Positions 2,850-20,047 of a DNA stretch of 24,000 nt are shown piece by piece. The notes under the pieces were generated by a model. That model did no database searches. It had not been told where the DNA came from and saw only the letters and a list, made by a program, of their open reading frames with translations. Position 1 is the stretch's first letter; each line of letters opens with the position of its first letter. The position numbers were made by a program, and so were the translations under genes. The DNA comes from Jeotgalibaca sp. MA1X17-3 (GTDB taxonomy: Bacteria; Bacillota; Bacilli; Lactobacillales; Aerococcaceae): contig NZ_CP090983.1 in assembly GCF_021513155.1 (NCBI RefSeq), positions 1,984,265 to 2,008,264 on the forward strand. The letters are read 5' to 3'.

Positions 2850-3031
2850 ATTTGAGGGTTTGCATCAAGTGGAAGCAGTTTTTTCTTCTACTTGATGCGT
2901 ATCGGCGCTTGCGTATCAAGTGGATGCAGTTTTTTTCTTCTACTTGATGTGTATCAGCGTTTACGTATCAAGTGAGCGTGGTTTTTTCTTTTACTTGATG
3001 CGTATAGGCGTTTACGTATCAAGTAGGTACC
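2850..3031. repeat. Tandem array (about 3.5-4 units, ~52-bp period) of a hairpin-forming intergenic repeat
   Basis: Units TACTTGATG(C/T)GTAT-N-ACGTATCAAGT (12-bp stem, 8-nt loop) plus spacer GTGGATGCAG-T6-7-CTTC at 2889-2940, 2941-2991 and 2992-3031. A degenerate unit lies at about 2850-2888. Confidence 0.85.
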
Positions 3032-3050
3032 AATTTATACCTATTCTACT

Positions 3051-3082
3051 AAAAAGCCCTTTTCCAAAGAAAAAAGGGCTTC
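3051..3082 (-). terminator. Rho-independent terminator of the php/yhf-type operon
   Basis: AAGCCCTTTT / AAAAGGGCTT stem immediately downstream of the yhfW-like stop codon. A/T runs lie on both sides, with a T-run on the minus-strand transcript. Confidence 0.7.
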
Positions 3083-3091
3083 ATTATGTAC

Positions 3092-4318
3092 TTATTTGTT
3101 TTGAATTTTTTCCAGGTATGACTCCCCATGTTGTGGAGCTTCTACTTGGAAGTATTCTGCTGCAGTTGCGGCGGTATCGGACATGTTATCGCGTATGCCA
3201 ACTTCTTGTCCTTCCATTCCTTTTCGATAAATTAGCAACGGTACATATTCACGGGTATGCTGGCTATGACCAATCGTAGGATCATTTCCATGATCGGCGG
3301 TGACAATGAGAATATCTTCTTCATTTAAAAGAGGAATTAATTCTTTGATTCGTTTATCACTTACTTCTAAGCGGTCTGCATAACGATCCACATTTTCAGC
3401 ATGACCCGCTAAATCGGTTTCTTGAATATTTAAACAGAAAAAGCCAGTATCTATTTTCTTTACTTGAGAAATTAAGCTATCGAATAGATCATCACTATCT
3501 ACTCCTAAGAAAACATGTGGACTAGTAGTTTGTACGATGTCCCCTACTTTTCCAACTAAGGTAACGGATATATTTTCATGGTCTAGTATCGTAGGAATCT
3601 GGACTTCAGGATCAATGCCATACCCTAAATGAATCACTTGGTATCCAGTATTGTAGACACCGGACTCCGGAGCATCCACTCCAGCAAATTTATTTTCTTT
3701 CACTTTACGAGCATTCAATAAATCATTTAAATCGATTTCTTCTCCACCAAATGCAATCACACGAGAGACTTTTACGACTTCTCGGACTGCTTTCCCTAGT
3801 TTCTTTACTTCTTCAAAAGGCATCAGATCGAGGCAGGCAGATACATTGAAAACTTGTCCCAAGTCAGTTTCTAAGTTATCTCCTACCGTTGCGGAGTCAT
3901 TTACTACTAAAATTTTTGGTTCGTCTTCTGCTCCTTCTTTGCGAACCTCATATCCTTTTTCTTTTAAGTGACGTTCTACTTCCTCAATCATGTCATTAAA
4001 AGCTTGGTTAAGTGGGATAGGTGGGGTTGTTCCCATTATTTCTTGGTGTCCTAAAAAAGAATCTGCACCTTGGTGTCCTAGGTTTGCTTTTCCCCAATTA
4101 GCTTTGGGAGAATATTTCAACCGGTCTGTTTCTTGACCGATGGTATTCATCAAACCTAGTTCTACTAAGGTATCGATCTTGATATCTGGTTTTCTTTCGA
4201 TGATATGGAAAGCAGTATTACTGCCTCTATCAGCAGGTCTTACTTCTGGAACGTCTTCCATTGCTCCCACTCCAAAGCTATCTAGTACAATTACAATATA
4301 TCTTCCCACACTGCTCAT
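3092..4318 (-). CDS. yhfW: YhfW-like phosphopentomutase/alkaline-phosphatase-superfamily metalloenzyme
   Basis: 408 aa. N-terminal IVLDSFGVG and C-terminal VTADHGNDPT metal-binding motifs, as in DeoB-type phosphomutases. The start overlaps the upstream stop (ATGA). Confidence 0.85.
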   Translation of the reverse strand: MSSVGRYIVIVLDSFGVGAMEDVPEVRPADRGSNTAFHIIERKPDIKIDTLVELGLMNTIGQETDRLKYSPKANWGKANLGHQGADSFLGHQEIMGTTPPIPLNQAFNDMIEEVERHLKEKGYEVRKEGAEDEPKILVVNDSATVGDNLETDLGQVFNVSACLDLMPFEEVKKLGKAVREVVKVSRVIAFGGEEIDLNDLLNARKVKENKFAGVDAPESGVYNTGYQVIHLGYGIDPEVQIPTILDHENISVTLVGKVGDIVQTTSPHVFLGVDSDDLFDSLISQVKKIDTGFFCLNIQETDLAGHAENVDRYADRLEVSDKRIKELIPLLNEEDILIVTADHGNDPTIGHSQHTREYVPLLIYRKGMEGQEVGIRDNMSDTAATAAEYFQVEAPQHGESYLEKIQNK

Positions 4319-5472
4319 CCTCTCAAGTATTTCCCTTGACTATCATAAATCCCCATTATTTCTGGTTTACCTGCTTGGATTCCTCTTACAAGAGCTACCT
4401 CACTTCTTGTTACAAAAATCTGAGTGCGTAATGCCATAATGGCTGTTGCTCCTATTGGCTCTTCTTCATTTACTTCTAAGTAATAATCAATATTTTCTTC
4501 TGGCAAAGATTTCATAGTAGACTGCCAGCGTTTGCCTTTTTGGTCAAATAGAACATATTTTAAATTCCCACGGCGATACAATCCGCCCCCATACAAGTAC
4601 GCATGTCCTTTAAAGTTATGAGAAACTTCACTGACATATACGTAAGCTGGGATTTCTGGTAAATCTTTTTCTGCATGCATAGGGGTTGTTCCAGTTAATG
4701 CATGCCCCGGCTCCCCTTGCGTTCCTTTTAATTCATTGATAAATGGTAACGTATATACAGAAGTTGTGGAAGGCATATTCAATTCCTTTGCTGGAAAACC
4801 AGCGTCCAGTAATAGATTTTGTGCTTTTAAAATCGTATCTGCATTATTTGTTTTTTCCAATATATCTTTTTTTGTATTTTGAAGGAAACAAGGAAATGAA
4901 GTTGCTCCAGCAATTTCAATATGGTCCAGTTCTTTAAAGGCATCAAAATACTCAGGCAGCTCCTTTAACTCAAACCCTCCATATTGCCCTGGATACAACG
5001 CATCCCCTTCATCGACTACACGGACTAATATTTTTTGGGTAATTGCTAATTCTTTTGCTGCTTGATTAATTTCTTTCAACTTATCTAGAGAATAAATGGT
5101 TATATATTCAGTGCCATATTCCATAATTTCTTTTAGTAAATGACTCGGAATCTGCACCAAATGACCTACGTTTCCTAATGGAATATGATTGGCCATCATC
5201 GTTTTCGCTTCACGAAAATCTACGACGACTGCTGCTGGAAATCCAGTTTTAATTAGTAATTTTGCTAAATCAGGATTTCGTCCAATTTGTTTAAGCATAA
5301 AGTACAATTCTATTCCTTGTTTGTCGGCTTCATCCAAAATAAGACGAGCATTTTTCAAAATAGCATCTACATCTAATACATACGTATCCGGTTGAATTTC
5401 TCCTGATTGATGCAGTTGAACAGCTGTATTAATTAGATTCGGATTTCGTTCTTTTGTTTTCTGCATAAACAT
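4315..5472 (-). CDS. yhfX: YhfX-like fold-type III PLP protein (alanine-racemase N-terminal barrel family)
   Basis: 385 aa. Sequence character and position (between the yhfY-like and yhfW-like genes) match the E. coli YhfX slot. Candidate PLP lysine in FMLKQIGRNP. Confidence 0.7.
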   Translation of the reverse strand: MFMQKTKERNPNLINTAVQLHQSGEIQPDTYVLDVDAILKNARLILDEADKQGIELYFMLKQIGRNPDLAKLLIKTGFPAAVVVDFREAKTMMANHIPLGNVGHLVQIPSHLLKEIMEYGTEYITIYSLDKLKEINQAAKELAITQKILVRVVDEGDALYPGQYGGFELKELPEYFDAFKELDHIEIAGATSFPCFLQNTKKDILEKTNNADTILKAQNLLLDAGFPAKELNMPSTTSVYTLPFINELKGTQGEPGHALTGTTPMHAEKDLPEIPAYVYVSEVSHNFKGHAYLYGGGLYRRGNLKYVLFDQKGKRWQSTMKSLPEENIDYYLEVNEEEPIGATAIMALRTQIFVTRSEVALVRGIQAGKPEIMGIYDSQGKYLRG

Positions 5473-5478
5473 AGGGTA

Positions 5479-5841
5479 TCACTTCCCTTTCTTGTTTTGA
5501 AGGAGCGTTACCAAATGTAGATAAAAGTAATCATCTTCATTTTTGGGGAAATCTACATTAATTTTCTCAGATAATTGCTTCCATACGGAAACAGCTTTTT
5601 CATATTCTATTGCTGCTTCAATTTCTTGTTTAATCATTGGATCTACAGAATCTACTTGTTCCTCATCTTTCCGTTGACGAGAAGTCGCCATCGCTAAATG
5701 AGTAATAAACGTATCTGCTTCATCTTCTTCTGTGATGACATTTTCTTGCTTCAAATAATTCAACGCTACTTGCATATCTTCGTATGTGGTCTCATCAATA
5801 ACATCATTTTCTTTTAAAATGGTTAACTTTTCTTGAATCAT
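5479..5841 (-). CDS. yhfY: YhfY-like stand-alone PRD-domain-like protein
   Basis: 120-aa acidic, helical-looking protein. AAGGAG lies 7 nt upstream of the ATG. Size and position between the yhfZ-like and yhfX-like genes match the E. coli cluster. Confidence 0.6.
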   Translation of the reverse strand: MIQEKLTILKENDVIDETTYEDMQVALNYLKQENVITEEDEADTFITHLAMATSRQRKDEEQVDSVDPMIKQEIEAAIEYEKAVSVWKQLSEKINVDFPKNEDDYFYLHLVTLLQNKKGK

Positions 5842-5866
5842 CTAAATTCTCCTTTGTTCACGTGTT

Positions 5867-6760
5867 TTAATACCGTGGGGTCATTTGTCCATTTTTAACT
5901 TGTGATTGAATATCACGAATTTGTTTTGTATCTAATGTGCGTTTTAAAGTGGAAGAAACGAGCGTATTATCTTTTTGACAAATAATAACTGCTTCACTCA
6001 TTTCTCGATGATGGTTCTTGACTGGTAATTCAATAAAGTACACATCTTCTAAACGTTTATCGATAATTTCATCATAGTTCCAAACTCCTGCGTCGATTTG
6101 TGATTCACGCAAACCATAAATTAATTGATTACTCGGCAAATCAACCTTTTCAACATCAAAACCTTCAATGATTTCATTGGTTAACAGCTTATGATCTAAT
6201 GAATCCGTATCAATTCCTACTCGTAGTCCATCTTTCATTACTTGTTCAACACCTTGACGGAAAAGTAAGACATGACGAGATAAGTACGTTTGTTCACCAA
6301 ACTGCATAATTACTTTAATCGCTCGGCCTTTATCGATTTCATGCTGTGCTGCGAATCGTGAGACAACCGCAAAGTCAAAAACCCCTTCTTCAACTGCACG
6401 AATTCGTTCTTCCGATCCACGTATATAAGCCAAATTTAATTTAATATTTTTATCGCGAAAAGCAGTATACAATCCTGTAGCTAATCCTTCATATAATCGG
6501 GAATAGGGTAAAGGCATCGTTGCAGAAAGTTGACTAGACGAAATATATTCTTGTAGAACTTGATGGTTGATCATTTTCAGAAAGGTTCCCAAATGTCCTT
6601 TACTTTCTGTTTCGATTGCTTGTTCTTCTTTAAGAAACTTTAATGCATTTTGTACCGTTCCTCTGGATAGTAAAAAAGTCGTTTGAAAGTCACTAATATT
6701 CGGCATACGGTCGCCTGTTTTTAATTGATAGAGTTCGTTAGCAATCTGTTCAATTGCCAA
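5867..6760 (-). CDS. yhfZ: YhfZ-like transcriptional regulator (N-terminal winged HTH plus C-terminal ligand-binding-like domain); start uncertain
   Basis: 297 aa from the TTG at 6760. HTH segment ISDFQTTFLLSRGTVQNALKFLKEE. The TTG directly abuts AAAGGA (no spacing), and an out-of-frame ATG at 6789 lies across an A7 run. Confidence 0.7.
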   Translation of the reverse strand: MAIEQIANELYQLKTGDRMPNISDFQTTFLLSRGTVQNALKFLKEEQAIETESKGHLGTFLKMINHQVLQEYISSSQLSATMPLPYSRLYEGLATGLYTAFRDKNIKLNLAYIRGSEERIRAVEEGVFDFAVVSRFAAQHEIDKGRAIKVIMQFGEQTYLSRHVLLFRQGVEQVMKDGLRVGIDTDSLDHKLLTNEIIEGFDVEKVDLPSNQLIYGLRESQIDAGVWNYDEIIDKRLEDVYFIELPVKNHHREMSEAVIICQKDNTLVSSTLKRTLDTKQIRDIQSQVKNGQMTPRY

Positions 6761-6812
6761 TCCTTTTTTTGGTAAAAGTATTTGTTCATTTTTTTATCTA
6801 CTTTCGTTTAAA

Positions 6813-7901
6813 TTACACTTCCATCGCTTGTTTGAGAATTCGTATAATGGTATCTGCTCCAGCACGCATAGGATTGATACGAATCGTATTAGTCTCTACA
6901 TCAGGAATAGCAGCACGGAACGTTCCGGATACTCGGTAGAACATCGGTACGATTTCATATTTTGATTCTGCTCCAACTGGATTGGGTGCAGCTCCTAATT
7001 TTTCGGCCTGTTCCAGCACTTTCTGTGCAATGGGCTCATTAAAGGTTACTAAAATAACTTTTGATTGTGCATTCGCAATAAAGGCTTTTTGGATACCGGG
7101 TACTTCCCCTTCATTCAAACGAGTAAATACTTCATCTGTAACTTTTGCAGACAAGGCAAGTGCTACTGGAGCATAGGTCATTCCACGTAATACATCTAGT
7201 GCTTCGAATCCTTGTACTTGTAGCCCGCCGGAATAATTTTCTTTACGAAGAAGGTCGATGTACTTCTGATCTCCTACAATGCACCCGACTCCTTCTGGTC
7301 CTAATACTTTAAACGTCGAGAAGCAAGAAAGGTTTGCTCCTTGCTCGCAGCCAATTTTAGGAATTTTCATAACGGCATAATTATCATCCGTAATGATGGG
7401 TCGATTGGGTGCAAATGTTTTAATGCATTGAATAACAGCTTGACTATCATAGGAATCATCTGGTTTCTGTCTCGTTAATTGAACTAAAGCACCATCAATT
7501 GTTTCGTTTTCTAATACTTTTTGTAACGCTTCTAAATCATTGAAATTGGCAACAACCGTCTGAATCCCTAACATATCTAACGTTACTTGTGTGGTTGGAT
7601 AAACAGGTGCTTCATGAACTAATAAAGTTGCATTTCTTGGCAAAGCTGCATGTATGGCCAAACGAATTGCCATCGTTCCGGCTCCTCTAATGAGCATCGC
7701 CGCTTCCGCATCAAAAAATTGAGCGAGTACTTTTTCTACTTTGTGCGTAGTGATCGGTTGATTGTAACCAGGGACGACACCTAAGTCTCCTCGAGTTAAA
7801 ATATCTTTTCCTTCAAAGACTTGCGTGATGGCATCCACTAAGCCAAATTGTTTTTCTGTTGCTTCTTCTACGGTAATGCTCTTTAATGGATAAGTTTTCA
7901 T
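6813..7901 (-). CDS. yhfS: YhfS-like fold-type I PLP-dependent enzyme (aminotransferase/SelA-like)
   Basis: 362 aa. Candidate Schiff-base lysine in SCFSTFKVLGPEG. AGGAGG upstream of the ATG. Confidence 0.75.
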   Translation of the reverse strand: MKTYPLKSITVEEATEKQFGLVDAITQVFEGKDILTRGDLGVVPGYNQPITTHKVEKVLAQFFDAEAAMLIRGAGTMAIRLAIHAALPRNATLLVHEAPVYPTTQVTLDMLGIQTVVANFNDLEALQKVLENETIDGALVQLTRQKPDDSYDSQAVIQCIKTFAPNRPIITDDNYAVMKIPKIGCEQGANLSCFSTFKVLGPEGVGCIVGDQKYIDLLRKENYSGGLQVQGFEALDVLRGMTYAPVALALSAKVTDEVFTRLNEGEVPGIQKAFIANAQSKVILVTFNEPIAQKVLEQAEKLGAAPNPVGAESKYEIVPMFYRVSGTFRAAIPDVETNTIRINPMRAGADTIIRILKQAMEV

Positions 7902-7920
7902 TTAGTCAGATACCTCCTAT

Positions 7921-8802
7921 TTAATAAGATGGATAAAATGTACGAGGATTGTCGACTAACATTTTTTGGATAAACTCTTCTGATAGTCCACCTTCACGTA
8001 GCAAGGGAATAAAGGAGTCTAGTAAGAAACTGTAGCCTAATCCATCTTTATACTCCAAATGTGATCGACGAGTAATATCCATTGAAAGGAAAACTCTATC
8101 GGTGTAGCCTGCTTTTTCGATTGCTTTTAACATCTCTAAACGAGTTGCATCGGGCATATAGTTTTCTTTTCCAACCGTATCAAATTCTACGTAAACTCCT
8201 TCTTTTAAAAGGTCCAATACATATTGCGTATCTCCGGTAAGATCAACATGACCAATAACAATTTTAGAAAGATCTGCACCTTGTTCTTTAAAAAATTCAA
8301 CTTGTTCTTTTCCATACGTACCTAGTGTCGTATGAGTAGTGATTGGAACTCCTGTTTCTTTTTGAGCGAAGACTGCAGCTTCAAAAACTTTACGTTCTCG
8401 TTCAGTCATTTCATTTTTACTCGTTCCAATTTCACCAATAAGTTCCGCCTTAATAGACGTTCCATCGATTCCTTTTTGGATATCGTCCATCATCATCTGT
8501 GCTAATTCTTCTACAGACTTTTCATAAATGTATTCTGGCAAGAATTTATCTTGATACCATCCGGTTGATTGTAAAATATTCATTCCAGAAGCTTCTGCTA
8601 CTCGTTGTACATATTCAGGATTGCGTTTCATCCCTCGTACGGTAACATCAACCACGTTTCGAACACCTTTTTCGTATAACTTCTTGTATTCTTTAACGGT
8701 TTCCTCAAAACAGTTTAGATTGGTATCTTCGGTATGTTTTAAGGAAGAGAGATCGATTGTTGTATGCTCATGTGCATAGGTGATTCCTTCAACTAGAGGC
8801 AT
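7921..8802 (-). CDS. php: Phosphotriesterase-homology protein (Php; amidohydrolase superfamily)
   Basis: YAHEHTTIDLS (HxH), GEIGTS, TTHT, IGHVDL and SMDITR metal-site motifs of the PTE family. I place the start at ATG 8802 (GAAAGGA 9 nt upstream; 293 aa) rather than the ORF-track GTG at 8862. Confidence 0.9.
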   Translation of the reverse strand: MPLVEGITYAHEHTTIDLSSLKHTEDTNLNCFEETVKEYKKLYEKGVRNVVDVTVRGMKRNPEYVQRVAEASGMNILQSTGWYQDKFLPEYIYEKSVEELAQMMMDDIQKGIDGTSIKAELIGEIGTSKNEMTERERKVFEAAVFAQKETGVPITTHTTLGTYGKEQVEFFKEQGADLSKIVIGHVDLTGDTQYVLDLLKEGVYVEFDTVGKENYMPDATRLEMLKAIEKAGYTDRVFLSMDITRRSHLEYKDGLGYSFLLDSFIPLLREGGLSEEFIQKMLVDNPRTFYPSY

Positions 8803-8875
8803 TTTATCCATTCCTTTCTCTGTGTTAAAAAGGGAAGGTGCCAAACCATTATGGTCTAGCACCTCTGTTTAATTT

Positions 8876-10180
8876 TTAAACGACTGGGGCAAATAGTCCC
8901 AGCACATAAAGAATATTTACAATAATTCCTAATGCGATTGCGGCAACAGGTCCAACTGCCATATCTACTAATGGTTTCTTAGCAGTACGGTTCATCAGAT
9001 AAGCTCCGAACACCCAGAAGAATCCAATTCCAGGAGCAATTTGTTCACTTGCCATCGCTCCACCTACTAGAAGAGCAATTTCTAAGACACGATTCATCGC
9101 GGTACGGATATGTTCACCCATGTCACGAACTCCAGGGAAACGATCCAATCCTTTTGCAGCTGCATTCAATAAGTTTACTTCAATAAACATAATCACTGCA
9201 CCAGCTAGGAAAGCAAAGATAGGATTTCCGTGCAACAAAATTCCAGCAACATAAACAAAAGTTGTTCCAGCTGGACTGTATACACCGGTAACAATAGCAG
9301 TAGAGAATACTAATGGAATAAAACCAATTCCTCTAGCAAAAGCAGCAAGTGCTGCTTCTCCAAATTTACCTTCACTTAATAGATTCAAGGATATTGGGTC
9401 ACCAGCAATAATCGTTAAACTGGTTGCAGCAGCAACTAGTCCACCTGCAACAGAAAGAATAATCCAGTTTTTCTTAATACGAGTAACCCGTTCAACGAAA
9501 ATACTAACTAAGTTTTGATTGTCGTCGGATTGACCTTTCACTTGGACTGCAAAGATAAGCATGAAGATCATTCCTACTAGAAGAGCCATTCCTTCTGCAG
9601 ATAAAGTAAAAGAAGTTTGTTCGTTTAATTGGAATGTTCCGAAACGTTTTACAATAAATAATACCAATGTACTGGTTGCTAATGTGATCGCACCTTTGTT
9701 AAATCCATGTTGATACGCAACAGCAACTGCTGGGAACACTGCAAATCCAATAACGATTGGGGTTCCAACTGCTCCAAGAGCACCTAATACATCAACTGGT
9801 AACATTGCGAATAAGTCAACCACTGCTTGTAAGCCTAATGTTAATGCGATACCATAAACGGCACCGATGACTCCGGCTATGATCATTCCTTTTTTACCAT
9901 CTGGAGTCCATGTACCAATAATATCGGTCATCAATAATAAACTATGAACTAAAATAATACTTGCTCCAATGGAAACCGGAATACCAAATCCGATTACCAA
10001 TCCAAAGCTGACTGCGAAACTGGTTGCTGCCAATTCTTTTTTACTAATGACCCCATCTAAGTATTCTGGCATAACGGGACGGAGGCCATCGTTAAATACA
10101 GCAATCCCCGTATTTGATAAGATAGCAGCGAGAGCACCTAATGCCCCTACAACAACTAATTGTATAATATCCAAACTCAC
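8876..10180 (-). CDS. yhfT: YhfT-like polytopic membrane protein (putative transporter)
   Basis: 434 aa, Gly/Ala/Val/Ile-rich, with about 11-12 hydrophobic segments. The AVFNDGLRPVMP N-terminal region and ...NILYVLGLFAPVV C-terminus resemble my recollection of E. coli YhfT. The true start may be TTG 10174 (9 nt after AAGGAG). Confidence 0.8.
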   Translation of the reverse strand: MSLDIIQLVVVGALGALAAILSNTGIAVFNDGLRPVMPEYLDGVISKKELAATSFAVSFGLVIGFGIPVSIGASIILVHSLLLMTDIIGTWTPDGKKGMIIAGVIGAVYGIALTLGLQAVVDLFAMLPVDVLGALGAVGTPIVIGFAVFPAVAVAYQHGFNKGAITLATSTLVLFIVKRFGTFQLNEQTSFTLSAEGMALLVGMIFMLIFAVQVKGQSDDNQNLVSIFVERVTRIKKNWIILSVAGGLVAAATSLTIIAGDPISLNLLSEGKFGEAALAAFARGIGFIPLVFSTAIVTGVYSPAGTTFVYVAGILLHGNPIFAFLAGAVIMFIEVNLLNAAAKGLDRFPGVRDMGEHIRTAMNRVLEIALLVGGAMASEQIAPGIGFFWVFGAYLMNRTAKKPLVDMAVGPVAAIALGIIVNILYVLGLFAPVV

Positions 10181-10201
10181 TCACTCCTTAATATTATAAT
10201 A

Positions 10202-10567
10202 TTATGATAATTTCAATAACTCATCCATTAGAATTGGAATTACATTTTCTTTGTGTTGTGCAGTAAATCCAAATGCAATTTTTCCTGAAGTAACTTGCTC
10301 CCGAATTTCTTCTTCTGCCATAATTTTTCCTGGCATAGAAACCGTTGCCGTTTTCGGTCTACCTACAAGTGCGATTGCCATCGCTAAAGCACCGCCGCCT
10401 CCTGTATTACAAGCGCCAAAGTAATAATCAGCTGTACCATTTTTAAGTGCCATCGCTGCTTCCAAATCACTTTTGGTTTCAATCTCGAATTTCCCTTGTG
10501 CATACTTCTCTACTAATTCTGCAACTTCTTTTTTGTCAATCTGGCCGCCTACTACAATTTTTTTCAT
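10202..10567 (-). CDS. yhfU: YhfU-like DUF2620 protein
   Basis: 121 aa. MKKIVVGG N-terminus and Gly-rich Cys motif YYFGACNTGGGGALAMAIA. GGAAGGA upstream of the ATG. First gene of the operon. Confidence 0.75.
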   Translation of the reverse strand: MKKIVVGGQIDKKEVAELVEKYAQGKFEIETKSDLEAAMALKNGTADYYFGACNTGGGGALAMAIALVGRPKTATVSMPGKIMAEEEIREQVTSGKIAFGFTAQHKENVIPILMDELLKLS

Positions 10568-10655
10568 TTTTTTCCTTCCTTTCTTTCTTTTTCAAACGTA
10601 CCAATGTACATTTTTTTGTATATTGGCATATATTGAAAACCTTTTCTTATAAGTA

Positions 10656-10684
10656 AGTTTACCCCATGTATTTTTAGATTGCAA
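10656..10684 (-). promoter_or_regulatory. Candidate sigma-A promoter of the php/yhf-type operon
   Basis: Minus strand reads AAACCC-TTGCAA-17 nt-TAAACT, about 85 nt upstream of the yhfU-like ATG and just downstream of the preceding gene's terminator. Confidence 0.45.
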
Positions 10685-10692
10685 GGGTTTTC

Positions 10693-10741
10693 TAAAAAAA
10701 ATAAAAAAGTGTCAGTATAGGTCCTCTATTTTTCTGACACT
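10693..10741 (-). terminator. Rho-independent terminator of the serine-hydrolase gene
   Basis: 8-bp stem AGTGTCAG/CTGACACT with an 18-nt loop, followed on the minus strand by TTTTTTATTTTTTTT. Confidence 0.65.
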
Positions 10742-10756
10742 TCTTATGCTAATTTT

Positions 10757-12121
10757 TTATTTTTTTATCGATTCGTATACTTTATTGGATATATCTTGAG
10801 ATAACTGCCCCGTACTAGCATAGGAGCTATCTTCTTTTTGTCCGTTATTTTGTTTATTGGTTAATATAATAATTTGTACGTTATATTCTGGATCAAAGAT
10901 TACTTGAGTTCCCGTAAAACCAGTATGGCTAAACGTTTGGTCAGAATGTTGGTCACCCATGTACCACTCTTTATTCAATTCCCATCCATATCCTTGTTCG
11001 AATCGTTGTGGGCTAATAAATGTTTGGAGAACTTCTTGACTATATAGTTCTACATCTTCATAAGTTCCTCCATTTAACATGGTCTGTCCTAAAACCGCTA
11101 AATCCTTAGCAGTAGAAAATAATCCTGCATGACCAGCAATTCCTTCATTTGCGTAGAAACCATTTCCATCATTTATTTCACCAACTAATGTATACTCTCT
11201 CCAGCCATCAAACATTTCTGGATCTTCTTCTACTGTATAGCCGAACTCATCATCTTCAATCATTTTATACTCGTAAGGATTTCCCCATGACGTTGCGGCA
11301 ATCGGTTGCTCTGTATTATCGGCAGCATTGAATAAAGTATCTTCCATTTGAAGCGGACCATAAATTTCATCTTGTAAATATTCATCTAAACGTTTATCTG
11401 TAACACTTTCTAAAATAAAGGCTAGAGTCATAAAACTGAAATCACTATATTTTCGGTCTGTTCCAGTTTCATATTCTAGAGGTAAATCATTAATGTAGTC
11501 CAGTACTTCTTCTCGATTTTTCGCAGTTAGATAAGTAGGTTCCCATGGCGTCAATCCCGATGTGTGAGTCAGTAAATCGGCAACCGTAACCTCTTCTTTT
11601 CCATTTTTACTAAAATCAGGTAAATACATAGCTACTTGATCGTCTACAGATATTTCACCTTCAGAAACTAATTTCATAATACCTTGCGTAGTTGCCATTA
11701 CTTTTGTAACAGATGCTAAATCAAATATTGTATCTGTTGTCATTTCAATTGGTTCATTTAGTTCTTCACCCATGTCATATTTTTGAGCATACCCATAGGC
11801 CGTTTCTTTTACAATCATATTATCTTTTGCAATAAGTACGACTGCTCCTGGAATAATTTTTTCTTCCATAGCAGCTTCAACAATTTGATCAATTTCAGCA
11901 AGTGTTTCTTCATCCATATTTGCTTCTTCAGCTGAGCCGTCTTTCAATTGGTTATCAGCCACTTGTTCTTCTGAAGATTGACTCTCCATCACTGAACTTT
12001 CTGTGGAAGAATTTTCTATTATAGAACTTTGTGATTCACTGTCCGTTTGATCTGTCGTTTGACATCCCGTTAGGAATACTGCCCCTGCAAGAATTGCTCC
12101 TGTTGCCATTCTTAATTTCAT
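10757..12121 (-). CDS. Lipoprotein serine hydrolase of the beta-lactamase/PBP4*/D-aminopeptidase fold
   Basis: Signal peptide with lipobox LTGC, a Ser/Glu-rich acidic linker, the SVTK (SxxK) nucleophile motif, YSD (YxN-like) and HTG (KTG-like) boxes. Confidence 0.85.
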   Translation of the reverse strand: MKLRMATGAILAGAVFLTGCQTTDQTDSESQSSIIENSSTESSVMESQSSEEQVADNQLKDGSAEEANMDEETLAEIDQIVEAAMEEKIIPGAVVLIAKDNMIVKETAYGYAQKYDMGEELNEPIEMTTDTIFDLASVTKVMATTQGIMKLVSEGEISVDDQVAMYLPDFSKNGKEEVTVADLLTHTSGLTPWEPTYLTAKNREEVLDYINDLPLEYETGTDRKYSDFSFMTLAFILESVTDKRLDEYLQDEIYGPLQMEDTLFNAADNTEQPIAATSWGNPYEYKMIEDDEFGYTVEEDPEMFDGWREYTLVGEINDGNGFYANEGIAGHAGLFSTAKDLAVLGQTMLNGGTYEDVELYSQEVLQTFISPQRFEQGYGWELNKEWYMGDQHSDQTFSHTGFTGTQVIFDPEYNVQIIILTNKQNNGQKEDSSYASTGQLSQDISNKVYESIKK

Positions 12122-12208
12122 ATTTTATCTTCCTTTCTATTTGTACATGATTACGTATCAATATACAATATTTTATATATTGATGCATAAACTATGTTCT
12201 ATAATTTA

Positions 12209-12237
12209 TACTAAAGTATATAAAATTCGATTGCAAG
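12209..12237 (-). promoter_or_regulatory. Candidate promoter of the serine-hydrolase gene
   Basis: Minus strand reads AAACCC-TTGCAA-17 nt-TAGTAT. The -35 region is identical over 14 nt to that of the php/yhf operon promoter. Confidence 0.35.
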
Positions 12238-12251
12238 GGTTTACATCTATT

Positions 12252-12280
12252 TGACAAAACCTCATTAAAAGTTGATAGTG
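12252..12280 (+). promoter_or_regulatory. Candidate promoter of the amidase-like gene
   Basis: TTGACA (12252-12257), 17-nt spacer, GATAGT (12275-12280). Followed by RBS GAGAGGTG and ATG 12311. Confidence 0.45.
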
Positions 12281-12310
12281 GGTTATAAGATAAATAGAGA
12301 GGTGAAAAAT

Positions 12311-13321
12311 ATGGAACCCAGTGAATGGATTAACGTGGCAAATCAAACCTTTATTGCTATGAAAAACCCTTACGAAAGTGTAGAAAAAGTATATCCTCGT
12401 GCATTAGAAAAGTATTCAGTGGGAAGTCGTTACATGGGCGTAAAAAACAAAGTTCAAATTCCACGTCATTTGATTGAACAATTAGAAACCTTTGGCTATA
12501 TCCTCCATACATTGGATAAGGCTAGTATGGGAGGTCGAGCTATTGATGTATCCTTAACCAATCCAATAAGTGGTCGCCCAATGACCGGTTCATCTAGTGG
12601 AACAGCTATCAATGTTCTATTAGGAATCAATGATTTAGGGATTGGTACAGATGGGGGCGGCTCAGTACTCGCACCTGCGATGGCAGTCCAACTATTCGGA
12701 TTTATTTGCCCGATCATTGAACAAGAACATTTGGAAAATTTTTCCTCAACCTCAACCGATGGAATTGGTTTTCACGCTTCTATCGGATTTATGAGTCGAG
12801 AATTTGAAGTTATTTTACATGCAATTCAGTGTGTTCTTCCATTGGAAGATACAAAAACCATTGCTTCCCCTAGGATTTTTGCAACAGGTTCTTTTGATGA
12901 TTTAGATGTAGCAGAAAATGTAAAAGTCGTTCAGACTCCTAACCTATTTGGCGAACGCGAGCCTCTTATTGATTTCTTGAAAGAAAATTTACCACAGTGT
13001 GACTTCTTGATTTCCAAAGAAGGTCCTGCAGATTTTCTAGGTTTTGGTGATACTGTGCTAGGGCATTTAGGCAATGAAGCTACCCGTTTACAACAGTCCT
13101 CTGGAAAAGGTCTGATTCGTGTCGCGAATATGGTTGATGCTACTGCGCTCGTCGTACCAACAAAAGATTTCGCTTGTGGATATGTACTCCTTTGCGAATC
13201 AACCTTACCAAAAGTGAAAGCGATGCTGGAATTTGCAAAAACAATTGCCCTTCCTCAAGATCCTCTATTGAAAAAATATTTTCAAAATATAGAGAATTAC
13301 TTTCCTGATGAATTTATTTAA
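12311..13321 (+). CDS. Short amidase-signature (AS) family protein
   Basis: TGSSSGTAINVLLGINDLGIGTDGGGSVLAPA matches most positions of the AS-family signature (GGSSGG...GTDxGGSxRxPA). Only 336 aa from ATG 12311. That start is preferred over the ORF-track TTG 12272, which would lie inside the predicted promoter. Confidence 0.75.
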   Translation: MEPSEWINVANQTFIAMKNPYESVEKVYPRALEKYSVGSRYMGVKNKVQIPRHLIEQLETFGYILHTLDKASMGGRAIDVSLTNPISGRPMTGSSSGTAINVLLGINDLGIGTDGGGSVLAPAMAVQLFGFICPIIEQEHLENFSSTSTDGIGFHASIGFMSREFEVILHAIQCVLPLEDTKTIASPRIFATGSFDDLDVAENVKVVQTPNLFGEREPLIDFLKENLPQCDFLISKEGPADFLGFGDTVLGHLGNEATRLQQSSGKGLIRVANMVDATALVVPTKDFACGYVLLCESTLPKVKAMLEFAKTIALPQDPLLKKYFQNIENYFPDEFI

Positions 13322-13608: not shown

Positions 13609-15273
13609 TTACATAGTAATTTCGTCGCTATTAGTGACTTTCATGAATATCAACAAGGAAACGACAGTGAAAAGAGTTAAAATGGTAGATAATGCTGCGG
13701 CAATCCCATAGTTCCCACGAATAACTTCCGTATAGATGGCAACAGTCATGGTTCGGGTACGCACATTATACAAGAGAATCGAAGTGGAAAGTTCGCTAAG
13801 CATTGTGATCCAGCTAAGGATTGCACCGGAAATAATTCCAGTCATCATCATCGGAACTGTTATCCGAAAGAATGTATTGACCTGTCCGCTTCCCAAGCTA
13901 GCTGCAGCTTCTTCTATTGAAGGCGATATTTGCATAAGCGCCGCAACAGAGGAACGAATCGTATATGGTAAGCGACGAACTGCTAATGAAATAATTAGAA
14001 TCGATGCTGTCCCAGTAATGGCGAGCACACCACTTCCCCCTATACCTGTGTTAAAGGAGGTTAAGAAAGCAATCCCCATTACCGTTCCCGGTACAATATA
14101 GGGAATCATACTGAGAGAATCGATTGCATTCGTAACTGGATTGCGTTTTCGTACTGCTAAATAAGAAATAAAAATAGCAAAAATTACGACTACAACCATT
14201 GCTAACAAAGGGATACGAATTGTGTTGAAAATAGCTGATCCCATTCGAGTAAAGGCTTCACGGTAACTATTTAATGAATAACCTGGTTGGAATACCATTC
14301 CTTTCGTATTTAAGAAAGAAGTATAAATTAAGTATCCTTGGGGTAGAATCGCTAAGAATACGATGCCATAAGTAACTAGGTATACTATTATTTTTTTCAA
14401 TCCGCTAATTGGTTTCACCACAACTGGATGCAAAGAGCTCATCGTTACTGACTGTCTTCGTGAAACGGAACGCTGAATTAAAAATATAATCAAAGCAATA
14501 AAAATAGCAATAATAGCTAACGCGGACGCAAAGGCAGCATCTCCCCCTACCTCACTCATGAATTCTGAGTAAATCAATACCGGGAAGGTTCGATATCCTT
14601 CTCCAATTAGCATTGGTGTCCCAAAATCGGAAAAGGCACGCATAAATACAAGTAAGGCTCCAGCTAAAATAGTTGGTACTAGTAAAGGGAAAATCACTTT
14701 AAAAAAACGATTCAACCCTGTACTCCCCATACTTTCAGCTGCTTCTAGTATAGAATTATCGATATTGCGGAATGCCCCATTTACATAAAGAAAAATTAGT
14801 GGAAATAACTGTAGAGTGAAAACCAAAGTAATTCCAGTGAACCCATAAATATCAGGCATTTGGAAACCAAATGCATTACTTATAAAACGGGTGATCACTC
14901 CATTTCTTCCCAATAATAAAATCCACGAATAGGCTCCAATAAAGGGTGCTGACATAGAAGCAATAATAATGAGGATTCGTAATACCTTTTTCCCTTTAAA
15001 ATCGAACATTGCAAAAAAGTATGCCAACAAAATTCCTAATACTAATGAAAAGATAGTAGCAGTCATCGAAACTTTAAAACTATTCCAAAGTGTATCTGAA
15101 TAATAACTTTTAGAAAAAAAAGTAATAAAGTTTTCAAAGCTAATTCCCTGTTCGGTCATAATAGCTTGGCGTAAAACATTTCCTACCGGATAAACGAGAA
15201 AAATCAGATAAGTAAATAAAATAAACAAAGAGGAGCTATTCCAAAGATTCAAGTTCCATTTCTTTTTGTTCAC
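13609..15273 (-). CDS. ABC importer permease, fused double domain (AfuB/FbpB/ThiP type)
   Basis: 554 aa with about 12 hydrophobic segments in two homologous halves. The start overlaps the ATPase stop. Confidence 0.85.
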   Translation of the reverse strand: MNKKKWNLNLWNSSSLFILFTYLIFLVYPVGNVLRQAIMTEQGISFENFITFFSKSYYSDTLWNSFKVSMTATIFSLVLGILLAYFFAMFDFKGKKVLRILIIIASMSAPFIGAYSWILLLGRNGVITRFISNAFGFQMPDIYGFTGITLVFTLQLFPLIFLYVNGAFRNIDNSILEAAESMGSTGLNRFFKVIFPLLVPTILAGALLVFMRAFSDFGTPMLIGEGYRTFPVLIYSEFMSEVGGDAAFASALAIIAIFIALIIFLIQRSVSRRQSVTMSSLHPVVVKPISGLKKIIVYLVTYGIVFLAILPQGYLIYTSFLNTKGMVFQPGYSLNSYREAFTRMGSAIFNTIRIPLLAMVVVVIFAIFISYLAVRKRNPVTNAIDSLSMIPYIVPGTVMGIAFLTSFNTGIGGSGVLAITGTASILIISLAVRRLPYTIRSSVAALMQISPSIEEAAASLGSGQVNTFFRITVPMMMTGIISGAILSWITMLSELSTSILLYNVRTRTMTVAIYTEVIRGNYGIAAALSTILTLFTVVSLLIFMKVTNSDEITM

Positions 15274-16355
15274 TCCGTCACCCCCTGTAGGTTCCTCGTC
15301 CCATCAGCGGTAAATACATTAATTTTTTGCGTATTAATATTCAAATAAATTTCATCACCTGGGTTAAGATTGACATGGAAGGTTGATTCTTCACTAAATT
15401 GAACTCGTTCTCCAGAATCCAAATGTAAATAGTACTCGGTATTTTGCCCTAAATAAATACTGTCCAAAATTTCTGCATGAATATCACCTTTTTCATGTAC
15501 ACGGACAAATTCTTCTGGACGAATACTGATACGAATATCTTGTTCTGGCTCATCCTTTAACGCTGGGAAAGGAATTTTATATCCAGTTGGTAGTTGAAGA
15601 TGCGTCACACCATTTTCTTTTACTAACTTTCCATCCAACATATTCGTACGACCAATAAAAGTCGCTACAAATTCATTGCTTGGACGATGGTATAACTCTT
15701 TCGGATTTCCAATTTGTTGAATTTCGCCTTTAAGCATTACAGCTATTTTATCGGAAATAGCCATTGCTTCTTCCTGGTCATGGGTTACATAAACAGTAGT
15801 GATACCAACTTCTCTTTGGATTTCGCGAATAGCTTGTCGCATTTCTACACGCAACTTTGCATCCAAATTACTCAGCGGTTCATCCATTAACAAAACATCT
15901 GGATTAATAGCTAATGCTCTTGCAAGAGCAACCCGTTGTTGCTGACCTCCACTAAGTTTATCTGGTTTTCGATCTTGATATTCATCAATTTGCATTAATT
16001 GTAAATACTTGTCTGCATTGATTTTAATACTATCTTTAGATAATTTTCGTTGTTTTAATCCAAATTCAACATTATCTCGAACGGTTAGATGTGGGAAAAT
16101 AGCATAGTTTTGAAAAACCATTCCAATATTTCGTTTACTGGGATCTTTATCATTAATTCTGGTTTCATTGAAATAAAAATCTCCACCTTCTATGGTGTTA
16201 AACCCTGCTATCATACGCAGCAGGGTTGTTTTTCCACATCCAGATGGTCCCAAAAGAGTAAAAAGAGTTCCATCTGGGATTGTAACAGATAAATCAGCAA
16301 TAACTGGTTGGCCGTAATATTCTTTTCGGGCATGTTTAATGATAATTTCACTCAT
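15270..16355 (-). CDS. ABC importer ATP-binding protein (AfuC/FbpC/PotA type with C-terminal regulatory/TOBE-like domain)
   Basis: Walker A GPSGCGKT, signature LSGGQQQR, Walker B LLMDEPLS, H-loop VTHD. Confidence 0.92.
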   Translation of the reverse strand: MSEIIIKHARKEYYGQPVIADLSVTIPDGTLFTLLGPSGCGKTTLLRMIAGFNTIEGGDFYFNETRINDKDPSKRNIGMVFQNYAIFPHLTVRDNVEFGLKQRKLSKDSIKINADKYLQLMQIDEYQDRKPDKLSGGQQQRVALARALAINPDVLLMDEPLSNLDAKLRVEMRQAIREIQREVGITTVYVTHDQEEAMAISDKIAVMLKGEIQQIGNPKELYHRPSNEFVATFIGRTNMLDGKLVKENGVTHLQLPTGYKIPFPALKDEPEQDIRISIRPEEFVRVHEKGDIHAEILDSIYLGQNTEYYLHLDSGERVQFSEESTFHVNLNPGDEIYLNINTQKINVFTADGTRNLQGVTE

Positions 16356-16370
16356 ATGACTACCACCTAC

Positions 16371-17423
16371 CTATCTATTGGATTCGATGTCTACAAAAAC
16401 ATCCGTGTAGTGATCTACAATTTTTTGTTTATTTTCAATCACATAGTCCATATCTTCTTCCAGTATCTTAATATCATCTAATGGTTTCATATTTTCACTC
16501 GTTTCAGCATCTTTACGTACCGGTCTATTCGTCGTTGTTGTTCCCAATACATTTTGGATATCTTCAGAAATAACAAAATCAACAAATAATTTAGCATTTT
16601 CCATATTCTCAGCATCCTTGATAACAGCAATGCTTGCTGGTAAGAACACGGTTCCTTCTTCTGGATACACAATTTCTACATTTGCCCCATCATTTAACAG
16701 CTTAACTGTTGGATCTTCATAAGAAAGACCTACTGTCATTTCTCCATCCGCTACTGTTTTGTAAACATTACTGGAGCTTGAACTAATTTTTCCATCAACT
16801 AAAGTGAAAACGTCTTTTACATAATCCCAGGCTTCGTCACTCTCATATCCACCTTTTGCAGCTAACATATTCGTTAGTTGTGCAAATGCACTCGAGGAAT
16901 TTGCTGGATCAGCCGTAGCAATCTTTCCTTTTAATTCAGGATTCAACAAGTCTTCATAACTTTTAATTTCAATATCTCCAATTAAATCTGGGTTTACGAC
17001 AATCACACTACCATCAATCGTATATGGTGTGTAAAAACCAGTTGTATTTTGATATTCAGTTACTAACGCATCGTTCTCTTCAGGAGTATATTCTTCAAAT
17101 AATTCTGTACTTTGTGCATATTGAGAATACGCACCTCCAAAAATAATATCTGCTATAGGAGCATTTTTTTCACTTTCTAATTTTGTAAACAGTTCGCCTG
17201 TTCCTGCTTGGATTAATTCTACTTTAATATCATATTTTTCTTCAAAAGCAGGAATCGTTGCATTTATTAAGCCTTCTGAGTTTGGAGAATAAACGACAAG
17301 TGTACTCGATCCAGCAGTAGTATTACCCGTTGAATCTGTATTTGCTTCGTCACCATTCCCACATGCGCCTAAAAATAATAACGTTAATGCTGCAGTCGAC
17401 AAAACTTTTCTTATTTTACTCAT
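16371..17423 (-). CDS. Lipoprotein ABC substrate-binding protein (AfuA/FbpA family)
   Basis: Signal peptide with lipobox LGAC. About 330-aa mature protein of the Fe3+/thiamine/sugar-phosphate SBP class. AAGGGGGA RBS. Confidence 0.85.
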   Translation of the reverse strand: MSKIRKVLSTAALTLLFLGACGNGDEANTDSTGNTTAGSSTLVVYSPNSEGLINATIPAFEEKYDIKVELIQAGTGELFTKLESEKNAPIADIIFGGAYSQYAQSTELFEEYTPEENDALVTEYQNTTGFYTPYTIDGSVIVVNPDLIGDIEIKSYEDLLNPELKGKIATADPANSSSAFAQLTNMLAAKGGYESDEAWDYVKDVFTLVDGKISSSSSNVYKTVADGEMTVGLSYEDPTVKLLNDGANVEIVYPEEGTVFLPASIAVIKDAENMENAKLFVDFVISEDIQNVLGTTTTNRPVRKDAETSENMKPLDDIKILEEDMDYVIENKQKIVDHYTDVFVDIESNR

Positions 17424-17509
17424 TTAAAATTCCCCCTTACTATTTTCTCTATCTTACCAACAATGACAGCGCATACATATCCGAAAAACAAACATTTTAG
17501 GAGAAAATC

Positions 17510-17872
17510 CTACATTTGAGAAAGATTCATAAATTCACTAGCACTCATATTAATATATTTTTTAAAAACTTGATTAAAATATTTGTAGTCGTTGAAACCA
17601 CACTGGGTTGCTACTTCATACAACTTCACTTCTTTATTTTTTAACAATTCAATCGATTTTTGGATCCGATATCGGTTTACATAATCATTAAATGTAAGGT
17701 GCATGTATTCTTTAAAACGATTGTGCAACAAGGTCGGACTATATCCAATTGTCTGAGCTACATCTTGAAAAATAAATCGTTTGTCATAATTTTGTTCAAC
17801 GTAGTGGATCATCTGTTGAATGACACCATCTTGAATAGAAGTAATATGTCTACCAATTAATTCAGGGTTCAT
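17510..17872 (-). CDS. AraC-type HTH DNA-binding domain, encoded as a separate ORF (C-terminal half of a YesN/HptR-type response regulator)
   Basis: 120 aa with two AraC HTH units (...VAQTIGYSPTLLHNRFKEY... and ...VATQCGFNDYKYFNQVFKKY...). No SD precedes its ATG. The ATG overlaps the receiver ORF stop (ATGA). Confidence 0.8.
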   Translation of the reverse strand: MNPELIGRHITSIQDGVIQQMIHYVEQNYDKRFIFQDVAQTIGYSPTLLHNRFKEYMHLTFNDYVNRYRIQKSIELLKNKEVKLYEVATQCGFNDYKYFNQVFKKYINMSASEFMNLSQM

Positions 17873-18282: not shown

Positions 18283-18287
18283 AATAG

Positions 18288-19940: not shown

Positions 19941-20047
19941 CAACAACCCTCCCTTCCACTCACTTTTGGAGCGCTTACACTTTATTGTTACTTTTAGTTT
20001 AGCAGAATTATGGTGTTAAATCACTATACGTTTACCAGTACAAAAAT

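Follow-up and report, generated by a model that had tools for sequence, protein, structure and literature searches.

The window, as we call the whole stretch analysed here, comprises 24,000 nucleotides (nt) of contig NZ_CP090983.1 from the lactic-acid bacterium Jeotgalibaca sp. MA1X17-3, and the system in question is its copy of the yhf/php cluster, a long-standing puzzle of eight contiguous Escherichia coli genes, three of whose products have crystal structures. Eight intact open reading frames (ORFs), taken from a six-frame list, run co-directionally on the minus strand from 10567 to 3092 in the order yhfU-yhfT-php-yhfS-yhfZ-yhfY-yhfX-yhfW, and the successive junctions from yhfU to yhfW measure 21, about 73, 19, 52, 25, 6 and -4 nt. 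A preliminary description made from the sequence alone had reported these ORFs, and all were found at the positions and on the strand it gave. Its gene identities were right: every protein matches the named family among the Pfam and NCBIfam hidden Markov models (HMMs), and the motifs it quoted (HEH, GHVD, SMDITR, VLDSFG and TADHGNDPT) are present in invariant columns. In BLASTP comparisons run from the window to E. coli K-12, against the eight E. coli cluster proteins, the window proteins share 31-54% identity with their namesakes, apart from YhfY at 25% (pairwise E-value 1e-9), and this pairing and the family HMMs bear out the orthology that had been proposed. Column conservation shows the catalytic residues to be intact in all cluster enzymes.

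The E. coli block is already known as an uncharacterised one with family names in Pfam and NCBIfam, and the window holds a further copy of it. RefSeq (September 2026 copy) labels all eight E. coli genes putative or uncharacterized, in agreement with the earlier statement that no substrate has been assigned, and entries 4J8L, 4KBX, 1BF6 and 4LEF of the Protein Data Bank (PDB) carry no functional name. We found no function for the cluster in that RefSeq copy, the PDB or the searchable literature; the last contains no functional study, and its matches are coincidental (strain B3379, a gap-filling table with an E-value of 0.47, an operon list, and lists of L. rhamnosus accessory genes).

Candidate operators and the extent of the unit

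The regulatory pair of the cluster consists of a YhfZ-like GntR-type winged-helix-turn-helix (HTH) regulator with a YhfZ_C ligand domain (5867..6760, minus strand; HTH_41 plus YhfZ_C, with YhfZ_full at 376.5 bits against a cutoff of 260) and a YhfY-like stand-alone PRD domain of 120 amino acids (aa) (5479..5841, minus strand; Pfam PRD 5e-7, 30.4 bits against a cutoff of 23). In YhfY, H48 and R55 are invariant and H109 is conserved, the histidines being those of the PRD that are putatively phosphorylatable. A 24-bp palindrome with the consensus CAATATACA-N6-TGTATATTG occurs twice in the window, and both copies are candidate YhfZ operators. One, CAATGTACA-N6-TGTATATTG (10602..10625), lies 35 nt upstream of the yhfU start codon, where the inverted repeat reads CCAATATACA-N6-TGTACATTGG; the other, CAATATACA-N6-TATATATTG (12159..12182), lies in the divergent region of two further genes, which encode a PBP4B-like hydrolase and an amidase.

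To place these sites in a wider context, relatives of YhfT were surveyed by a degenerate-pattern scan of one genome per species, which found them in 391 of 185,579 species representatives, a share that marks the cluster as a specialised niche trait. The comparative counts given here refer to the best 80 loci from those 391 species, each from a different species, and clusters of Cetobacterium, Vibrio and E. coli were compared beyond these. All loci were scanned for the palindrome consensus with at most two mismatches, and a hit was counted as near a start if it fell between -250 and +60 of the start of a yhfU, yhfZ, amidase or PBP4B-like gene. Near starts lie 39 of the 62 hits in the 80 loci, which gives 0.68 hits/kb compared with 0.016/kb elsewhere, a ~40-fold enrichment. 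The palindrome is found in most loci just upstream of the first cluster gene, be it yhfU or yhfZ; in the arrangement that starts with yhfZ it is additionally found upstream of the yhfY or yhfU transcription unit, and where a PBP4B-like gene leads the operon (Granulicatella; L021-L025, L057) it is found upstream of that gene. Given this position and conservation, the palindrome is likely to be the YhfZ operator, which would place the PBP4B-like and amidase genes in the same regulon as the core. The E. coli K-12 locus (L001) has a perfect palindromic variant, AAATATTCA-N6-TGAATATTT, at 14007-14030, in the spacer that separates yhfY and yhfX. We found no mention of this candidate YhfZ site in the searchable literature, and its location before yhfX agrees with the database operon php-yhfSTUWX listed in PMC4448311.

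The first of the two accessory genes (10757..12121, minus strand) encodes a PBP4B/YfeW-like serine hydrolase of family PF00144 (Pfam 1e-69) with the lipoprotein signal LTGC and the motifs S137-x-x-K140, Y225-S-D and H399-x-G. Its best named family is NCBIfam PBP4B, at 292 bits, and because this is below the cutoff of 385 we treat PBP4B as the closest named family and not as an equivalog. The nearest PDB entry is the FmtA-like Flp (4GDN), and FmtA, which we take to be a teichoic-acid D-Ala esterase, is matched as well. The PBP4B-like gene is adjacent to or embedded in the cluster in 13 of the 80 loci, every copy has a signal peptide, and the one in the window has its own terminator-like hairpin at about 10700-10740.

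The second accessory gene (12311..13321, plus strand) encodes a short amidase-signature protein of 336 aa (Pfam Amidase 30.4 bits against a cutoff of 27; signature aligned to GatA), ~120 aa shorter than typical members. Its triad K45 / S94-S96 / S118 is invariant in 29 homologues, and it has no signal peptide. The gene accompanies 53 of the 80 clusters, often between yhfT and php and otherwise directly after yhfW or divergently just upstream, and it is also inside the Cetobacterium cluster; across Firmicutes, Fusobacteria and Mollicutes it comes close to being a ninth core gene. In the close relative J. caeni, the 269-bp spacer between the divergent amidase and yhfU genes contains two operators and no PBP4B-like gene, and by this comparison the PBP4B-like gene of the window appears to have been inserted between two operators.

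The functional unit here probably comprises ten genes, from 3092 to 13321. The eight genes that the preliminary description presented as a complete operon stand, while their limitation to eight does not, since the PBP4B-like and amidase genes share the candidate operator and recur in other clusters. A terminator-like hairpin with a T-run just after yhfW (3057..3077, minus strand) is the probable end of the operon, and an Rfam scan of the window detected no riboswitch or known RNA leader.

Products of the core genes

Php (7921..8862, minus strand) is a phosphotriesterase-family amidohydrolase (Pfam PTE 2e-87, 293.6 bits against a cutoff of 22.4). Its start is probably the ATG at 8802 rather than the listed GTG at 8862, because homologues and a ribosome-binding site favour the former. 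The ligands of its binuclear metal site (H31/H33, E144, H177, H205 and D262) are all invariant, and E144 is presumably the bridging Glu, as in E. coli Php. Among PDB entries it matches 4LEF/1BF6 at 2e-82. Its best NCBIfam family is PRK09875, at 338.6 bits and below the cutoff of 486, so that Php is a diverged orthologue by context and not by the PRK09875 threshold; the second-best is the phospho-furanose lactonase family, at 101 bits against a cutoff of 630.

Two core enzymes are of the pyridoxal 5'-phosphate (PLP) type. YhfS (6813..7901, minus strand) is a fold-type I enzyme (Pfam YhfS-like_C 7e-45; PDB 4J8L 1e-122) in which the PLP lysine is likely K198 of the motif FSTFK. Searched against the PDB, its profile finds 4J8L and then methionine gamma-lyase and other enzymes of Cys/Met metabolism (1e-10), with further matches to YnbB-type C-S lyases and cysteine desulfurases. 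YhfX (4315..5472, minus strand) is a fold-type III enzyme with the alanine-racemase fold (Pfam YhfX-like_C and Ala_racemase_N; PDB 4KBX 2e-101). K61 is its likely PLP lysine, EPGH is invariant, and its profile finds 4KBX, alanine racemases (1e-6) and, weakly, D-threonine aldolases and diaminopimelate decarboxylase. YhfW (3092..4318, minus strand) is a phosphopentomutase-like phosphomutase of the alkaline-phosphatase superfamily (Pfam Metalloenzyme; PRK12383, 564 bits against a cutoff of 254) that matches PDB phosphopentomutases at 4e-36. Its metal ligands D13, D302, H306, D342, H343 and H354 are invariant, and position 87, directly after the invariant D86, is Ser or Thr; we take this to be the position of the DeoB nucleophile. 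YhfW scores below the true DeoB models (TIGR01696, 148 against a cutoff of 341) and is thus not DeoB itself.

YhfU (10202..10567, minus strand; 121 aa) had been described as a DUF2620 protein, which holds (Pfam 1e-46; 44% identity to E. coli YhfU); more than that, it is predicted to have an RpiB-type alpha/beta fold with a conserved Cys-x-Thr. The AlphaFold2 model has a predicted local distance difference test (pLDDT) score of 94.8, and RpiB structures are its top Foldseek matches in the PDB (TMq 0.64-0.68, probability 1.0, E-value 4e-4). Across 80 sequences the invariant residues are G7 G8, D34, D47, Y49, C53-x-T55-G56-x-G58-G59, K96 and F99-G100-F101-T102, and the motif G-A-C-x-T-G-x-G-G-A-L is likewise invariant. 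In an hhalign alignment C53/T55 fall over the catalytic C66/T68 of E. coli RpiB, with an E-value of 0.035 and a probability of 1.5%, which is not significant. The Pfam model LacAB_rpiB (PF02502) does not match YhfU, for which Pfam reports DUF2620 only, so YhfU is predicted to be RpiB-like without being filed as a member of RpiB/LacAB; the C-terminal helix it lacks presumably carries the phosphate-binding arginines of RpiB. We also considered YhfU as a classical enzyme IIB (EIIB) of the phosphotransferase system (PTS) and rejected this, given no fold match and no hhalign support against UlaB and GatB. DUF2620 is a very small family: a set of 1.84 billion proteins contains 176 clusters of it at 50% identity.

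Two fusion proteins contain YhfU. P0317, from a high-GC organism, has DUF2620 (with the motif G-T-C-x-S-G-G-G-G-A-L) followed by a PRD domain, an order that matches no gene arrangement seen and so does not represent read-through; it suggests that YhfU and YhfY are directly linked in function. P0257, a fusion of Php and YhfU, is probably a read-through of adjacent genes of the E. coli (enterobacterial) type.

YhfT (8876..10180, minus strand; ~432 aa) is a polytopic membrane protein (Pfam YhfT 2e-169) whose gene follows yhfU directly in every arrangement, and it is presumed to be an importer. Its sequence is 100% identical to a protein of Jeotgalibaca sp. MA1X17-3 (Carnobacteriaceae). Its predicted model is mediocre (pLDDT 70); Foldseek found no solved transporter matching it in the PDB, with all TM-scores below 0.2, and profile comparison with UlaA showed no similarity. 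In the interval that separates the yhfT stop from the php start, the scan for terminator-like elements located a stem-loop with a 14-bp stem followed by a T-run, CCCTTTTT (8835-8865, minus strand), with an RNA folding energy of -26.4 kcal/mol (z = -5.6). The yhfT-php gap is where many other loci have the amidase gene. The stem-loop may be a partial terminator that sets the stoichiometry of YhfU and YhfT relative to the enzymes, an RNA-stabilising element or the scar of a gene loss.

Gene order and neighbours in other species

Each of the 80 loci that is not truncated by a contig end holds the whole set, so that its co-occurrence is far beyond chance, and the view of the cluster as one conserved unit is well founded. 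The order seen in the window, U-T-Php-S-Z-Y-X-W, is shared by Carnobacteriaceae, Enterococcus, Vagococcus and Granulicatella, and the commonest order in Firmicutes is Z-Y-U-T-(amidase)-Php-S-X-W, found in Clostridia, Lactobacillaceae and Fictibacillus and also in Fusobacteria. The E. coli K-12 region has the order Z-Y-X-W-php-U-T-S (b3383-b3376), just as the preliminary description had given it. The window differs from this order, which varies among taxa and hence is no strict criterion for membership. The same description had suggested two modules, Z-Y-X-W and U/T/php/S, and the census of gene orders in the 80 loci contradicts this: U-T and X-W are invariant adjacencies, Php-S is usual, and the element that relocates is the regulatory pair Z-Y. 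The conserved units are therefore [Z-Y], [U-T], Php(-S) and [X-W].

A few loci depart from the complete set. The cluster on Vibrio halioticoli plasmid AP024877.1 (L085, 7447-13857) reads Z-Y-Php-U-T-X-W, with yhfS missing from the locus; some lineages may thus do without YhfS or encode it at another site. A Bacillus thuringiensis plasmid (L083, NZ_CP126475.1, 11184-23547) has a divergent and incomplete cluster (Y-U-T-Php-S-X) that lacks both yhfZ and yhfW and is followed by three ATP-grasp genes of the L-amino-acid-ligase-like kind and a major facilitator superfamily (MFS) transporter gene, and is possibly a variant with peptide-related chemistry. Two metagenome-assembled genomes from Bacillota / Negativicutes (L047, L049) have the order Y-T-Php-S-X-W-T-U-amidase, in which the second of two yhfT genes alone is paired with yhfU.

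The neighbours of the cluster include several genes of amino-sugar and PTS function. In six loci nagB follows yhfW directly (TIGR00502, 297 bits against a cutoff of 237), with a lactate permease gene after it in L058; in three an HPr gene follows yhfW, accompanied by Enzyme I in one of them. The cluster adjoins murP-mupG-murQ(-murR) in Thermoanaerobacter and Halanaerobium, and in a member of Streptococcaceae (L046) a LicT-type antiterminator takes the place of YhfZ. Looser neighbours are RihA-type nucleoside hydrolases (seven loci), MetNIQ-like transporters, psuG/psuK and nan genes.

Within the window, we rejected the ATP-binding cassette (ABC) transporter and two-component system at 13609-19946 as part of the cluster, since they adjoin none of the 80 clusters, and likewise the downstream MgtC and HAD genes (1395-2747), which are not conserved. 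In the former region, an AraC-type HTH (17510-17872) and a receiver domain (17869-18282) occupy separate minus-strand ORFs with a 4-nt overlap (together 17510-18282) and look like a split or frameshifted YesN-type regulator; beside them are the ABC importer (13609-17423) and a 552-aa ORF (18288-19946), presumed to encode a histidine kinase. In the interval from the MgtC-family gene to the end of yhfW, two terminator-like hairpins on the plus strand (2887-2979) contain the repeated sequence GCGTATCAAGTG. A spurious ORF (2920-3279) spans them, and its repeated FFFYLM..GVYVSS peptide reflects a direct DNA repeat. A further plus-strand ORF of 319 aa (294-1253) has a weak match to HTH_38 (E-value 5e-4).

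Proposed pathway, rivals and known systems

Taken together, we tentatively favour a single YhfZ-repressed system, modulated by the PTS through a PRD, that degrades a conjugate of an amino acid and an (amino)sugar phosphate, possibly derived from cell walls. In such a system YhfZ, bound to the palindrome, would repress until an intermediate of the pathway occupies its C-terminal domain, and YhfY would tie regulation to the phosphorylation state of the PTS. The secreted PBP4B-like hydrolase, where present, would free a small conjugate from an extracellular polymer in which a (D-)amino acid is bound as an amide or ester, with bacterial cell-wall material as the leading candidate for the polymer, and YhfT would take the conjugate up. 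Inside the cell, the amidase and Php, the latter as a lactonase- or esterase-type metallohydrolase, would open or split it. YhfX, of the racemase/epimerase type, would process the amino-acid-like part by epimerisation, after which YhfS, of the beta/gamma-lyase or aminotransferase type, would eliminate or transaminate it. YhfU, as a Cys-based RpiB-like isomerase, and YhfW, as a phosphomutase with a Ser/Thr nucleophile, would turn the sugar phosphate into central metabolites, and in some Clostridia the route may run through glucosamine-6-phosphate (GlcN-6-P) and NagB. The accessory genes inside the operon are the only ones that share regulation with the core, and together they point to amino-sugar, D-amino-acid and cell-wall material. 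The earlier guess at the substrate, an aminated and/or phosphorylated derivative of a sugar acid or amino acid, is compatible with this evidence while unproven.

Several points weigh against this explanation. We could trace no route from any one known cell-wall fragment that employs all of YhfX, YhfS, YhfU, YhfW and Php, and for this reason we put the explanation as a whole somewhat below an even chance and any specific substrate lower. The cluster has no kinase, which leaves the phosphate for Php, YhfW, YhfU and NagB unexplained unless uptake phosphorylates the substrate, and no substrate is supported by the searchable literature. YhfZ binding to the palindrome is read from position and conservation only. 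The amidase is absent from the E. coli, Lactobacillus and Vibrio clusters, and the Vibrio cluster also lacks yhfS; the associations with PBP4B-like genes (13/80), nagB (6/80) and murQ (2/80) are minority features, and some neighbours point elsewhere, namely the RihA-type nucleoside hydrolase in seven loci, psuG/psuK and the MetNIQ-like transporters. The alignment of YhfU with RpiB is short of significance (E-value 0.035), and the C-terminal part of RpiB is missing from YhfU (121 compared with 149 aa). On paper, we could fit all enzymes neither to N-acetylmuramic acid (MurNAc), muramic delta-lactam, stem peptides and D-alanyl-teichoic fragments nor to glucosaminate lactone, dihydrouridine, products of S-ribosylhomocysteine or S-adenosylmethionine (SAM), and Amadori compounds.

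The missing kinase is where the main rival reading gains, one that concerns the uptake step and that we hold to be unlikely: that the cluster encodes a PTS-like group translocator, with YhfU as a phospho-cysteine carrier (a functional EIIB) fed by HPr/EIIA and YhfT as the EIIC of a new family, so that the substrate is phosphorylated on uptake and YhfY reads the phosphorylation of YhfU. This would supply the phosphate for Php, YhfW and NagB and leave the remaining pathway unchanged, with E. coli ula as the analogue. It agrees with the constant position of yhfU immediately upstream of yhfT, the invariant Cys53 at the N-terminus of a Gly-rich helix in YhfU, the PRD protein within the core set and the natural DUF2620-PRD fusion P0317, and with the HPr genes after three clusters, Enzyme I in one of these and the LicT-type antiterminator in L046. 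The layout of the ula operon serves for comparison, and hhalign sets the Cys motif of YhfU on the Cys9 loop of UlaB, over 16 columns only. However, the top 50 PDB matches of the YhfU model include RpiB and no EIIB, and its Cys comes after strand 3, as in RpiB, whereas that of EIIB comes after strand 1. Profile similarity is not significant for YhfU with UlaB or GatB or for YhfT with UlaA, the YhfT model (pLDDT 70) matches no solved EIIC, there is no EIIA gene in the cluster, and the Php-YhfU fusion P0257 suits an enzyme role as well as a carrier role. The boldest version, a previously undescribed route for a conjugate derived from the cell envelope in which YhfT and an RpiB-fold DUF2620 phosphocarrier form a new group translocator with a PRD readout, is in our estimate unlikelier again.

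A different origin for the substrate, in nucleic-acid or SAM metabolism and not in cell walls, strikes us as improbable. The compound would then be a ribose-containing amino-acid conjugate, for instance a modified nucleoside that is ring-reduced or bears an amino acid, S-ribosyl- or S-adenosyl-homocysteine, or a breakdown product of SAM such as homoserine lactone. Php would serve to open the ring of a lactone or cyclic amide, the amidase would cut a ureido or amide bond, YhfS would carry out a gamma- or beta-elimination, and YhfW and YhfU would convert ribose-1-phosphate through ribose-5-phosphate to ribulose-5-phosphate. The closest relatives of the enzymes suit these steps: phosphopentomutase for YhfW, ribose-5-phosphate isomerase B for YhfU, methionine gamma-lyase for YhfS and, for Php, characterised enzymes that act on pentono-lactone 5-phosphates. 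So do some neighbours, with RihA-type nucleoside hydrolase genes upstream in seven loci, MetNIQ-like transporters beside several clusters, psuG/psuK directly after yhfW in L071 and a cytidine-deaminase-family gene in L068, but the nucleoside hydrolase and MetNIQ genes are upstream of the operator and outside the regulated unit. A nucleoside phosphorylase or kinase that could provide ribose phosphates is lacking, and the secreted PBP4B-like hydrolase, the in-operon nagB and the murQ neighbourhood are left unexplained. Very improbable, in our view, is a substrate formed by glycation (Amadori/Heyns) of an amino acid or amino-acid amide, in parallel to E. coli frl and Salmonella fra, with the amidase deamidating an Asn or Gln conjugate and YhfU as isomerase or deglycase. 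Its main basis is that the cluster adjoins frlABCDR in E. coli, and this adjacency was seen in E. coli only: genes like those of frl (a SIS deglycase and a PfkB kinase by a transporter) were not seen beside the 80 Firmicute loci. The GntR-type regulator, the many hosts from fermented-food or gut habitats and the aldose-ketose isomerase fold of YhfU, which suits a deglycase step, are consistent with glycation, but known deglycation routes need a kinase and have no PLP enzymes, lactonase or mutase. That the genes are neighbours with no shared pathway, a mere syntenic block, or a decaying remnant in this genome is barely credible. Across Firmicutes, Fusobacteria, Spirochaetes, Mollicutes and Proteobacteria the set is found in three or four different arrangements, so chance adjacency is effectively excluded, and the shared operator, the short or overlapping junctions and the full-length ORFs with invariant catalytic residues speak against chance and decay alike.

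The Gram-positive versions, that of the window among them, offer what E. coli lacks: a secreted PBP4B-like hydrolase and a cytoplasmic amidase within the regulon, nagB, HPr and murQ neighbours, and a well-conserved operator. Together with the RpiB-like DUF2620, these features narrow the question to a few substrates and assays that can be tested. In the searchable literature we found no description of the ten-gene regulon, its conserved operator, the amidase as a near-core gene, the module structure or the RpiB-like nature of DUF2620; all are computed leads, not functional findings. If the substrate is a cell-wall fragment, the system would fill a gap in envelope recycling or scavenging by Gram-positive and gut bacteria; the group-translocator reading, if true, would mean a new PTS permease family and explain eight E. 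coli genes at once.

Compared with the E. coli K-12 cluster, the window has all eight families at 25-54% identity, their genes all on the same strand and either closely spaced or overlapping, and a related palindrome with AATAT[A/T]CA half-sites and a 6-bp spacer. It differs in its order, U-T-Php-S-Z-Y-X-W, in the added PBP4B-like and amidase genes, and in having no adjoining frl. The MurNAc operons (E. coli murQ-murP-yfeW and B. subtilis murQ-murR-murP-amiE-nagZ) likewise encode a secreted PF00144 (PBP4B-type) hydrolase with an uptake and catabolic operon and have links to the PTS and to GlcN-6-P and NagB, and murQ, murP and mupG adjoin the yhf cluster in two lineages. AmiE is presumably a homologue of PBP4B. 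PBP4B is encoded by the third gene of the E. coli murQ-murP-yfeW operon, and the MurNAc cluster of B. subtilis encodes AmiE, a MurNAc-L-Ala amidase that is extracellular (PMC5061867, which does not state that the two are homologous). The yhf cluster itself, unlike these operons, has no MurQ etherase, MurP EIIBC or NagZ, and its regulator is YhfZ/YhfY and not MurR; conversely, MurNAc catabolism has no counterpart of the two PLP enzymes, Php, YhfW, YhfU or YhfT.

In its logic the cluster resembles E. coli ula (UlaABC PTS and UlaG), which combines uptake of a ring compound, a metal lactonase acting on the phosphorylated product, and sugar-phosphate isomerases and epimerases. Between YhfT and YhfU and their counterparts UlaA and UlaB, however, no similarity was detected, PLP enzymes are absent from ula, and UlaG has a metallo-beta-lactamase fold whereas Php belongs to the PTE family. 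With RpiB/LacAB, YhfU shares the predicted fold, and its Cys-x-Thr, followed by the start of a Gly-rich helix, may occupy the place of the catalytic Cys66/Thr68 of E. coli RpiB, but it is ~28 residues shorter, other active-site residues differ, and its gene is always paired with that of a membrane protein. Beyond its own subgroup, the relatives of Php that are best characterised are phospho-sugar lactonases of the Lmo2620/Bh0225 type, which likewise belong to the PTE family and have the same binuclear metal site, while Php forms its own subgroup, PRK09875, with a bridging Glu.

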